64,000 nt of DNA from Candidatus Pacearchaeota archaeon (GTDB lineage Archaea > Nanobdellota > Nanobdellia > Pacearchaeales > GW2011-AR1): NCBI GenBank assembly GCA_050303855.1, contig JBNLCO010000010.1, positions 158,207 to 222,206 of the forward strand, given 5' to 3'. Shown in pieces: positions 37,347 to 38,906 of the stretch. The position numbers and the translations under genes are program-made. Every line of letters starts with the position of its first letter. The first letter of the stretch is position 1. The notes below the pieces were generated by a model. The model was given only the letters and a program-made list of their open reading frames with translations, was not told the DNA's origin and searched no databases.

Positions 37347-37372
37347 AATAAAATTTTAATTGTTAATAATAC
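37347..37372 (-). promoter_or_regulatory. conserved upstream motif TTTTAATTGTTAATAA (representative copy)
   Basis: Near-identical copies sit immediately 5' of start codons at about 40263, 40866, 45936, 49698, 53852, 56567, 62099, 62881 and 35454. Related TTTATAAACAATT occurs upstream of the plus-strand genes at 3036 and 5206. Confidence 0.5.
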
Positions 37373-38196
37373 CAAGGGTCATAATACCAGCATGGTGCGA
37401 TAAAGAAAGGATCCAAGTAAAGACCATCATCATAATACGTTTCTTCAACGGTTTCAACATAAGTTACGATCTCTTCTTCCTCAAATTCATCGCCATCATC
37501 TTCCTCAGAATTTTCTGCTTCATCGATCTCTTTCTGTTTTGCCATTAAATCCAATCTTAATTGTGTTCCGGCTTCAATTATATTGGTCATTATGTCTTCT
37601 TCTCCAGGGATATTTATTTGATCAAGAATATCATTTGTTTCACAAATCTCTAAGATTTCGTTCCACATCAGATCATTAACAAGATCAAACTCCCAACCTT
37701 CCTTTTCAAGGTCAAACCTTCCTTCAAAAACAAACAGCATAAAAACAACTTCTGTAACAGGAATGGTTTTTCCTTTTTTAGCATTTTGATTTTTATAAGC
37801 GCATACTGCAACCCTTAAGTCCTCCCACTTTTCATCATCAAGATATTTGTTCCACTCTTCTTCTTCCATATCATACCAGGAAGAAAAGGCAAATTCTCCG
37901 GCTTTAGTGTCAACTGCACAATAAAGGTCATAAGTATTAAGATAATCACTATATTTGTCCAGGAAATTTTGTAAAATTTCTCGGCCTTTTTCAGTTGGAA
38001 CATAGTATTTCTTACCTCCAATTGATTCTATTCTGACCGTTTTTTTACCAAGCATATATTCAAACAAAGGTTCGAGATAGGTTTGATTTCCCTCAAAAAC
38101 GATTGGAAAGTATCTCTTTTCCTGTATCATTTCCCGGAGGATAATAGAAGAAGCATATTGCTTCTTCTGTTCATCGGTTAAAACGTATTTTCTCAT
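37363..38196 (-). CDS. hypothetical protein with acidic C-terminal tail, adjacent to pspA (candidate PspA partner)
   Basis: 277 aa. GGAGG SD 8 nt upstream. Ends in an EEDDGDEFEEEE run and ..CWYYDPWYY. Starts 2 nt after the pspA stop. Confidence 0.5.
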   Translation of the reverse strand: MRKYVLTDEQKKQYASSIILREMIQEKRYFPIVFEGNQTYLEPLFEYMLGKKTVRIESIGGKKYYVPTEKGREILQNFLDKYSDYLNTYDLYCAVDTKAGEFAFSSWYDMEEEEWNKYLDDEKWEDLRVAVCAYKNQNAKKGKTIPVTEVVFMLFVFEGRFDLEKEGWEFDLVNDLMWNEILEICETNDILDQINIPGEEDIMTNIIEAGTQLRLDLMAKQKEIDEAENSEEDDGDEFEEEEIVTYVETVEETYYDDGLYLDPFFIAPCWYYDPWYY

Positions 38197-38198
38197 GA

Positions 38199-38906
38199 TT
38201 AATTTCCTCCTTTCATAAAATCATCAAATAACTTATTGTTATCTGTTTTTGAGGGTGTTTTCAGAAACTCATCAATATTGTCTGAAAGGGTTTTCCCTTC
38301 ATCAGCGATTTCGGCATATGCATCTGCTTTTGCCTGTTTTTTATTTACCTTCTCTTTCATACGATCAATTGTTTCCTTGGTTGACGAATTGCCCAGACCA
38401 GATAATTGTTTATTGATTTTAAGTTCTGCATCCGCAACCTTATCATCTGCCTTAAGTTCATCAACACTTTCCTCAGTCCCTTTAATGTCATCACGCATTG
38501 ACCTAATCTTATTTGCCAAGGCTTCTTCTTTGATTTTGATTTTAGCCGCTTTTTCTTTTGTATTTTTGGCTTTATCTTCATAATTTTCTTTCTTATTAAG
38601 GGCTTCAACAATCATGTTTTTAATTAATGATTTTTGAGTTTCATCAGGTTCTCCGTCATACCTTTCTTTAAGTTTGAGTGCTTTCTTATTCCACTCAATA
38701 CTTTTTTCCACATATCCTGAAGCTTCTCCCTCAATACCAATTCTAACCGCCTTAACCTCTGAATGGGTGCCGATTACTTCCTCCAAGTTATCCTTCATAT
38801 CCCGGATTGCTTGTTCGGTAATTTCAACCGGGTCTTCAAGAGCATCTACTGCTTTATTGGCTTTTGCTTTGCCAATAGTCACAATTCTTTTCCAAAGTTT
38901 ACTCAT
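38199..38906 (-). CDS. pspA: PspA/IM30/Vipp1 family protein (ESCRT-III superfamily)
   Basis: N-terminal IVTIGKAKANKAVDALEDPVEITEQAIRDMKDNLEEV aligns with PspA [37 protein letters not shown]. All-helical coiled coil, 235 aa. Confidence 0.7.
   Translation of the reverse strand: MSKLWKRIVTIGKAKANKAVDALEDPVEITEQAIRDMKDNLEEVIGTHSEVKAVRIGIEGEASGYVEKSIEWNKKALKLKERYDGEPDETQKSLIKNMIVEALNKKENYEDKAKNTKEKAAKIKIKEEALANKIRSMRDDIKGTEESVDELKADDKVADAELKINKQLSGLGNSSTKETIDRMKEKVNKKQAKADAYAEIADEGKTLSDNIDEFLKTPSKTDNNKLFDDFMKGGN

Follow-up and report, generated by a model that had tools for sequence, protein, structure and literature searches.

In a 64,000-nt stretch of DNA from a Candidatus Pacearchaeota archaeon (contig JBNLCO010000010.1 of assembly GCA_050303855.1, positions 158,207 to 222,206; hereafter the window, numbered from its first letter), two adjacent minus-strand genes encode a PspA/IM30 protein of 235 aa and a 277-aa protein of an unnamed family, which we refer to as the partner. 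PspA/IM30/Vipp1 proteins are the prokaryotic ESCRT-III, and their recruitment and regulation have been studied mainly in a few models (PspBC/F, LiaI). The pair is laid out as follows.

38199..38906, minus strand: pspA/IM30 gene, open reading frame (ORF), 235 aa
37363..38196, minus strand: partner gene, ORF, 277 aa
38206..38210, minus strand: GGAGG Shine-Dalgarno-like site for the partner, within the 3' end of pspA and 9 nt 5' of the partner ATG

Direct reading of the minus strand across the junction gives ...AAA GGA GGA AAT TAA tc ATG, with the partner ATG placed 2 nt past the pspA stop codon (38199-38201). This is the layout given in an earlier note on this DNA, namely a 2-nt spacer and a GGAGG of the partner's own. 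That note also described the pair as tightly coupled, which is accurate for the window but does not carry over to other genomes, where 26 loci with the order PspA to partner have a median intergenic gap of 77 nt (range -14 to 394 nt). The adjacency of PspA and the partner is conserved, while tight translational coupling is not.

The 235-aa protein matches the Pfam family PspA_IM30 (PF04012) with an E-value of 3.2e-26 and 92.7 bits, relative to a cut-off of 33.9, and the alignment is full-length, pairing protein residues 4-213 with profile positions 2-199 of 220. The PspA/IM30 assignment made earlier for this gene therefore holds. Among NCBIfam models it obtains weak PspA and LiaH matches only, and its N-terminal sequence, MSKLWKRIVTIGKAKANKAV, looks amphipathic when read by eye from the sequence alone.

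The 277-aa partner has no match in Pfam, NCBIfam or the sequences of the PDB. A word-index search recovers 40 homologues, none of them from a named family, and a profile search of 1.84 billion representatives (clusters at 50% identity) gives 360 partner-family matches at E<=1e-3 and 264 at E<=1e-10. Because the partner has this many relatives by both routes, the two ORFs can be taken as genuine genes and not as chance reading frames. The partner is a member of a compact, narrowly defined and unnamed protein family, whose 360 representatives are between 150 and 335 aa long and include no domain fusion. Neither a defence-system nor a phage-structural identity is indicated for the PspA-partner pair, as PADLOC matches stay at noise level and PHROG matches are zero, and neither the INPHARED collection of phages nor the PLSDB collection of plasmids contains a match to the pair.

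The genomic context of the family was counted at the best 80 of 175 species-level relatives from GTDB, with neighbours taken on the same strand and within 7 kb; loci of individual homologues were added to this set, and all were annotated with hidden Markov models from Pfam-labelled seeds. The partner-PspA linkage is conserved, with PspA in the same operon at 64 of the 80 loci, and several of the misses among the 80 fall on incomplete contigs. The most constant neighbour of the partner is a lipoprotein rather than PspA (71/80), and 5 loci hold the lipoprotein and the partner without PspA. Next in frequency come DUF350 (46/80), a CesT-like protein (41/80, where it stands ahead of PspA), a K+ channel of either the RCK-gated or the GluR0 type (37/80), a spermine-synthase-like protein (37/80) and AdoMet decarboxylase (AdoMetDC; 28/80). 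The operons take the following forms.

Type A (most phyla): spermine-synthase-like protein (membrane-fused), lipoprotein, DUF350, partner, RCK K+ channel, CesT-like protein, PspA, AdoMetDC
Type B (Bacteroidota, the window, several viral contigs): lipoprotein, PspA, partner
Type C (Acidobacteriota, an Ignavibacteria metagenome-assembled genome, several viral contigs): lipoprotein, partner

The slot directly 3' of the partner is occupied by two non-homologous classes of K+ channel, RCK-gated at most type-A loci or GluR0-type, the latter being found in loci L013/L014 and in viral contig L101. The most constant pair of the cassette is a lipoprotein, probably of the Ctha_1186 type, together with the partner; PspA is nearly always present, and the K+ channel, DUF350/YjfL, CesT-like and polyamine genes are frequent extras. 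This makes the partner a standing component of a mobile envelope-stress cassette, that is, of a class of PspA operons, and not an accidental neighbour of PspA.

The partner itself divides into three parts.

37915..38196, minus strand: partner residues 1-94, degenerate winged helix and long C-terminal helix
37501..37914, minus strand: partner residues 95-232, all-helical, very acidic domain without a recognisable relative
37366..37500, minus strand: partner residues 233-277, acidic linker and then a conserved aromatic tail, here YLDPFFIAPCWYYDPWYY

With the family alignment as input, AlphaFold2 gives a confident model of the partner (pLDDT 88.6, pTM 0.83) that consists of a winged helix and helices, with no transmembrane (TM) segment and no beta-helix. 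Fold searches detect the winged helix at the N-terminus alone, and the remainder has no fold match. The N-terminal domain comprises three helices and a small sheet, with near-invariant R81 and D90, while the family alignment as a whole resolves into a ~215-aa core, then an acidic linker, then a tail whose consensus reads Y..Y.DP.Y[VI]SP.W. The window partner ends in ...CWYYDPWYY and has a pI of 4.19 and a net charge of -36, with residues 233-277 carrying -15, so that the very acidic C-terminus and the WYYDPWYY ending to which the earlier note drew attention are both present as stated. These values are in keeping with the family medians, a pI of 4.3 and a net charge of -28.

A winged helix beside PspA raises the question of whether the partner is a one-component regulator, whose winged helix would bind an operator of the cassette and whose helical domain would sense a signal, with the tail perhaps holding the protein at the membrane until stress occurs. 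The modelled N-terminal domain does have the winged-helix fold of the MarR/PadR/Sso10a class. Several features speak against the regulator, however, which we consider unlikely. In the model a single helix, not two, lies between strand 1 and the wing, so the second helix of the helix-turn-helix (HTH) is gone. Where a recognition helix would lie, the family consensus is GDDxDLEPILEWLMAK; the charge of this helix is -4 at the median and below zero in 99% of members. Position 42 is acidic in 94% of members, 85% have a winged-helix domain of net negative charge, and the pI of the protein as a whole is ~4.3. From the model and the family charges together, a complete HTH with a polar or basic recognition helix is not found in the partner, and an inverted repeat upstream of pspA, a candidate operator, is weak. 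As judged from these sequences and from the model, DNA binding by the partner appears unlikely. The loss of the second HTH helix, along with an acidic face where relatives are basic or polar, therefore argues for a protein-binding adaptor or sensor and not for a repressor.

The reading we lean toward, tentatively, is that this standing component of the cassette serves the PspA module in the cytoplasm as an adaptor or sensor that does not bind DNA; we infer this from composition and context. The partner has no signal peptide and should for this reason be cytoplasmic. It would be positioned at the inner face of the membrane, where its acidic helical domain might bind a cationic ligand such as polyamines and its aromatic C-terminal peptide might dock on the body of the partner itself or on a membrane component of the cassette. 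So placed, the partner could link PspA assembly, K+ channel activity or both with envelope state or ion balance.

The aromatic tail is kept across phyla and is modelled with a pLDDT of 78-86. A motif of the form P[YFW][YF]x[SP]Px?[WYF] is present in 52 of 97 partner ORFs and in 22 of 85 lipoprotein ORFs, and in none of the 7046 other ORFs of the same loci. In the window the regions concerned are the partner tail (37366-37440) and part of the lipoprotein gene (~39700-39800); family-wide, the short motif (PYYxSPxW) recurs in L002-L109 and is present in no further ORF of the roughly 100 loci. That the partner and the lipoprotein have this motif in common suggests a binding site, or a role at the membrane interface, that both share. 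Its placement differs between the two proteins: in the lipoprotein the motif comes after a semi-hydrophobic segment, in the partner it usually comes before one, and no explanation suits both topologies.

A number of observations weigh against the adaptor or sensor and must be set beside it. One-component regulators classically have this layout, a winged helix with a helical effector domain after it, and the best fold matches of the partner N-terminal domain are the DNA-binding regulators MarR, PadR and Sso10a. Short forms of the partner (~220 aa) have no tail and are nevertheless found in the same operons. The final residues of the tail are hydrophobic in some lineages and charged in several others, so that membrane anchoring is not general and the idea of the tail as a general membrane anchor is weakened. 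Two binding arrangements that charge might suggest also fail. Binding of the acidic partner to the basic tail of the lipoprotein is ruled out on topology; the internal segment of the lipoprotein has a median 19-mer Kyte-Doolittle value of 0.59, with none >=1.6, which is too weakly hydrophobic for a TM helix, and the basic tail is for this reason probably not cytoplasmic. Binding of the acidic partner to a basic PspA is rejected as well, since PspAs encoded next to the partner are acidic too (median charge -6).

The composition of the helical domain also bears on a second alternative, in which the partner is mainly a buffer or sensor that binds polyamines or other cations (spermidine-like polycations made by the synthase of the operon) and is only indirectly linked to PspA. 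Conserved Asp/Glu and Trp/Phe residues are found in the helical domain, whose median charge is -18, and binding sites for polyamines, such as that of PotD, combine acidic and aromatic residues; polyamines are also known to block K+ channels. The gene order fits, as in most phyla the partner gene is situated between the membrane-fused spermine-synthase-like protein with DUF350 on one side and the K+ channel on the other, with AdoMet decarboxylase at the end of the operon. The cassettes of the window, of Bacteroidota and of the viral contigs hold no polyamine genes, however, and no fold similarity of the partner to known polyamine-binding proteins was found, which leaves this alternative distinctly improbable in our estimation.

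The cassette in the window consists of five genes, in the order lipoprotein (with a Peptidase_S74 domain), PspA, partner, GluR0-type K+ channel and DUF481. Each of these ORFs is intact, and gaps of 2-94 nt separate them. The three genes besides the pair are given here.

39001..40260, minus strand: lipoprotein, 419 aa, signal peptide and lipobox (...AFNGC); the same family lies 5' of the partner in 71/80 loci
36279..37346, minus strand: GluR0-like ligand-gated K+ channel (Pfam Ion_trans_2, Lig_chan, SBP_bac_3)
35541..36272, minus strand: DUF481 (outer-membrane beta-barrel family), last gene of the cassette, Pfam E 3.7e-10, 6 nt from the channel gene

The alignment of the lipoprotein family shows an NNLDLDEDGxVDY loop, the semi-hydrophobic segment, an HPYYxSPW/YGYYPSYY motif and a basic tail rich in Ser, Arg and Lys. 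Residues 315-375 of the window lipoprotein match Pfam Peptidase_S74 (E 2.6e-9), an intramolecular chaperone of tail fibres, and its C-terminus (residues ~315-419) matches PHROG tail-fibre families (E 4e-17); among 85 members of the family, the window lipoprotein alone carries this C-terminal domain. By architecture and by operon position it is probably the "Ctha_1186" lipoprotein listed in Table S3 of Ravi et al. (2024; PMC11237479). In type-A operons the Ser/Lys/Arg-rich tail of the lipoprotein (e.g., L004, 8189-8995) is encoded together with a membrane-fused aminopropyltransferase-like enzyme and an AdoMet decarboxylase, and one idea prompted by these sequences is that the lysines of the tail might be polyamine-modified. 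The channel of the window combines a periplasmic-binding-protein domain with a pore that has a TIGFG filter, and its gene begins 16 nt past the partner stop. The DUF481 gene is syntenic in L013/L014, at 38% identity. A perfect inverted repeat, AATCTGG ... CCAGATT, with 7-nt arms 21 nt apart, lies at 38945-38979 in the 94-nt gap between the lipoprotein gene and pspA; from its sequence it could be an operator or a weak hairpin. Promoter, terminator and inverted-repeat scans of the region were uninformative.

The genome that carries this cassette is archaeal. At 21198..23945 the genes for DUF655, uS13, uS4, uS11 and RNA polymerase subunit D follow the archaeal order with archaeal best matches, the nearest named homologues of uS4 (67-72% identity) belong to Nanoarchaeota, Nanobdellota, Pacearchaeota and Diapherotrites, and SecD and SecF of the window are of archaeal type. 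The gene order and the uS4 homologues confirm a DPANN host, in line with the earlier note, and the same ribosomal/RNA polymerase operon and homologues rule out a diderm bacterial host, which the OmpA, DUF481, lipobox and ABC genes might otherwise suggest. Conservation of the pair in other DPANN genomes, which the earlier note named as a check, was not recovered; the pair was found in Bacteria and on phage-like contigs. All of the best 80 of 175 GTDB partner loci are from Bacteria, and every identifiable relative of the cassette is either bacterial or on a phage-like contig.

The partner, PspA and lipoprotein of the window have no close relatives, the best partner match being 47% identical. In context the closest match is L013/L014, where the genes in common with the window are the five of the cassette and no others, at 33-44% identity. 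L013 (ENA k141_2263216, 50.7 kb) encodes the large and medium subunits of a T4-type topoisomerase II (PHROG E 1.6e-188 and 1.3e-140), thymidylate synthase (ThyA), an exonuclease and a polynucleotide kinase. A further 12 IMG/VR contigs (L098-L109; 24-501 kb, GC 0.26-0.33) carry lipoprotein-PspA-partner or lipoprotein-partner, one of them with a GluR0-type channel, and in their flanks there are genes of the kind usual in large phages and none for ribosomal proteins; the viral identity of these contigs was judged on flanks of +/-10 kb only. This amounts to phage-like contigs carrying "phage shock protein" modules.

Given that its relatives are bacterial or phage-borne, the window cassette was probably acquired horizontally, and since the nearest of these relatives are only 33-47% identical the acquisition was not recent. 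An old horizontal acquisition of a mobile unit, possibly through a virus, is the most economical reading of the cassette in this archaeon. The same lack of archaeal relatives could also mean that the cassette is foreign to the archaeon altogether, either because DPANN and bacterial or phage DNA were joined into a chimeric contig or because the block is a recent and non-functional insertion. The block holds OmpA-domain and DUF481 genes, which make little sense without an outer membrane, and two independent Logan short-read contigs (24.4-34.7 kb and 37.3 kb onward) stop short of the ribosomal operon, a point that counts against our preferred account too. We nevertheless hold a chimera or insertion to be very improbable. 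GC is flat across the window (0.30-0.37), the tetranucleotide correlations among six segments of the window are 0.81-0.89 and that between the archaeal core and the psp block is 0.84, relative to a median of 0.40 and a maximum of 0.83 against other genomes. The five intact ORFs with gaps of 2-94 nt, at 33-47% identity to the nearest relatives, likewise argue against a relic or a recent insertion.

The earlier note placed the pair within a wider neighbourhood together with an AAA ATPase and a major vault protein (MVP) gene. Both genes are where it put them, but a joint AAA, MVP and PspA neighbourhood is not supported by conservation, as the two adjoin the pair only in this genome. The AAA ATPase, the MVP homologue, a 166-aa acidic protein and a 556-aa repeat protein were found beside the partner in none of the other loci examined, and this rules out the AAA ATPase and MVP as conserved members of the cassette. 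These and other features of the neighbourhood are listed below.

30699..33302, minus strand: major vault protein homologue, 867 aa, MVP_shoulder E 3.5e-21, Vault_3 E 1.5e-9
33436..35106, minus strand: very acidic repeat protein, 556 aa, next to MVP, ~80-aa repeats, ...DDDDITSFLGEVNYGTEFCKALVP...
35541-36272, minus strand: DUF481, as above
40365..40865, minus strand: 166-aa protein between the AAA ATPase and the lipoprotein, C-terminal half extremely acidic, ends GGDYDSGSSDYDSGGDFGGGDD
40993..42816, minus strand: Mpa/ARC-like AAA ATPase, TIGR03689 (pup_AAA) 282 bits, under its cut-off
48144-49697 and 50563-52275, minus strand: OmpA-domain proteins

The 166-aa protein has no homologues in the fetched loci. 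The AAA ATPase scores 282 bits with the model of the actinobacterial proteasome ATPase (pup_AAA) and 172 bits with archaeal PAN models, which is odd for an archaeon, and its gene follows an ABC transporter after a 33-nt gap. In L015 a run of OmpA, ABC and AAA genes lies 5' of the lipoprotein and partner, and its AAA protein is not homologous to that of the window at the level of phmmer. The run upstream of the window cassette encodes, in order, OmpA, a protein of no assigned family, TelA, binding protein, permease, ABC ATPase and AAA ATPase. The supplement of Ravi et al. (PMC11237479) mentions PspA operons that contain, besides an ABC ATPase and a permease, a distinct AAA+ ATPase and a binding protein with an OmpA domain, and by resemblance the window run may be a second PspA-type context placed beside the cassette. 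The DUF481 gene and the two OmpA-domain genes are unexpected here; an archaeon of this kind should have no outer membrane or peptidoglycan. Elsewhere in the window ARAGORN reports a tRNA with a two-base anticodon at 17330-17417 (minus strand), and this may be an intron-containing or otherwise atypical archaeal tRNA.

The cassette occurs in bacteria of more than 10 phyla, on large phage-like contigs and in one DPANN archaeon, and it therefore behaves as a self-contained, transferable unit for membrane stress. This has a bearing on how phages manage the envelopes of their hosts and on gene flow into DPANN genomes. In the constancy of its link to one large class of PspA operons the partner family equals any named partner, and it combines a distinctive architecture with a short tail motif common only to the co-encoded lipoprotein. 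Culturable carriers of the three-gene core exist in Pedobacter and Mucilaginibacter.

How the pair compares with known PspA systems can be addressed at the level of domains and of operons. The earlier note held that the partner does not look like any known partner of PspA, and profile searches agree for the domains that they covered: scans of 40 members with Pfam and NCBIfam find no Toastrack, SHOCT, PspB/PspC, LiaF or band-7 domain, not even at E<=1. An identity with Toastrack, SHOCT or another of these known partners of the phage shock system is rejected on this ground and on the fold, which has no beta-helix and no TM segment. The ~90 N-terminal residues resemble PadR, MarR and Sso10a proteins, including those of the PSP-linked HAAS-PadR pairs, in having a winged helix and a long helix. 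They differ in that their HTH is degenerate and carries an acidic charge; the partner then continues with a helical domain (~140 aa) for which no relative has been solved, an acidic linker and an aromatic tail, and a HAAS partner is missing.

A comparison with PspAA is possible by published description only. PspAA is described as a short stand-alone domain of three helices and four strands with an invariant R and D, its reported range covering Euryarchaeota, Thaumarchaeota, Actinobacteria, Chloroflexi and Firmicutes (PMC11237479). The partner N-terminus likewise has three helices, a small sheet, R81 and D90; by the same description the partner differs in being a two-domain protein of ~215-280 aa found in other phyla.

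In eukaryotes and Asgard archaea, ESCRT-II presents a parallel, in that the gene of a winged-helix protein neighbours one of the ESCRT-III/PspA superfamily, and an Asgard neighbourhood of Snf7, Vps4 and an ESCRT-II winged-HTH protein is noted by Ravi et al. (PMC11237479). By analogy, the partner might be a functional counterpart of ESCRT-II that nucleates or restrains PspA polymerisation at a membrane site marked by the co-encoded lipoprotein and channel, with a phage-carried cassette that would control the integrity of the host membrane and would have crossed from Bacteria to DPANN. We regard this as a highly doubtful extension of the adaptor or sensor proposed above.

In the E. coli cluster yjfIJKLMC (YjfI/DUF2170, YjfJ/PspA family, YjfK/DUF2491, YjfL/DUF350, YjfM/DUF1190, YjfC), a PspA-family gene is again found with DUF350, a lipoprotein and polyamine-linked enzymes. 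YjfK adjoins DUF350 as the partner does, and its 219 aa equal the length of the short partner forms. The partner is nevertheless not DUF2491: Pfam scans of 40 members give no DUF2491 match, and hhalign of a 40-sequence profile against E. coli YjfK gives a probability of 0.5%, so the YjfK identity suggested by operon slot and length is rejected. The window PspA is also only 19% identical to YjfJ (E 0.005).

The closest published systems are the operons built on a CesT/Tir-PspA (yjfJ-type) dyad, described by Ravi et al. (2024, mSystems; PMC11237479, section 19) with Shewanella SO_3765 as an example. One class of these adds a 7TM-spermine synthase, YjfL/DUF350, the "Ctha_1186" lipoprotein with a low-complexity tail and DUF4178 (PMC11237479, Table S3), and another adds a K+ channel, DUF2491, DUF1190 and an ATP-grasp ligase (PMC11237479). 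In most phyla the surroundings of the partner are of this kind, with a lipoprotein that has a low-complexity tail, DUF350, a spermine-synthase-like protein, a CesT-like protein followed by PspA, and AdoMetDC, and the type-A operon is a blend of the two published classes. The window keeps the lipoprotein and PspA but is missing CesT, DUF350 and the polyamine genes; directly upstream of its pspA there is the lipoprotein gene and not CesT/Tir (DUF2170), while a GluR0-type channel, DUF481 and the S74 domain on the lipoprotein are added and the host is archaeal. The window PspA is 30-33% identical to PspAs located directly 5' of the partner elsewhere and 25-28% identical to CesT-linked PspAs, and one of its nearest homologues (P0312, 35%) sits behind a CesT_Tir gene. 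A winged-helix partner is not among the components given in section 19 and Table S3 of that article (PMC11237479), so that, relative to these parts of the source, an operon class published in 2024 gains a component. The pair thus belongs to a familiar kind of system, the PspA operon whose partners vary by lineage; in this case one component is an unnamed but well-defined protein, and the distribution is unexpected.

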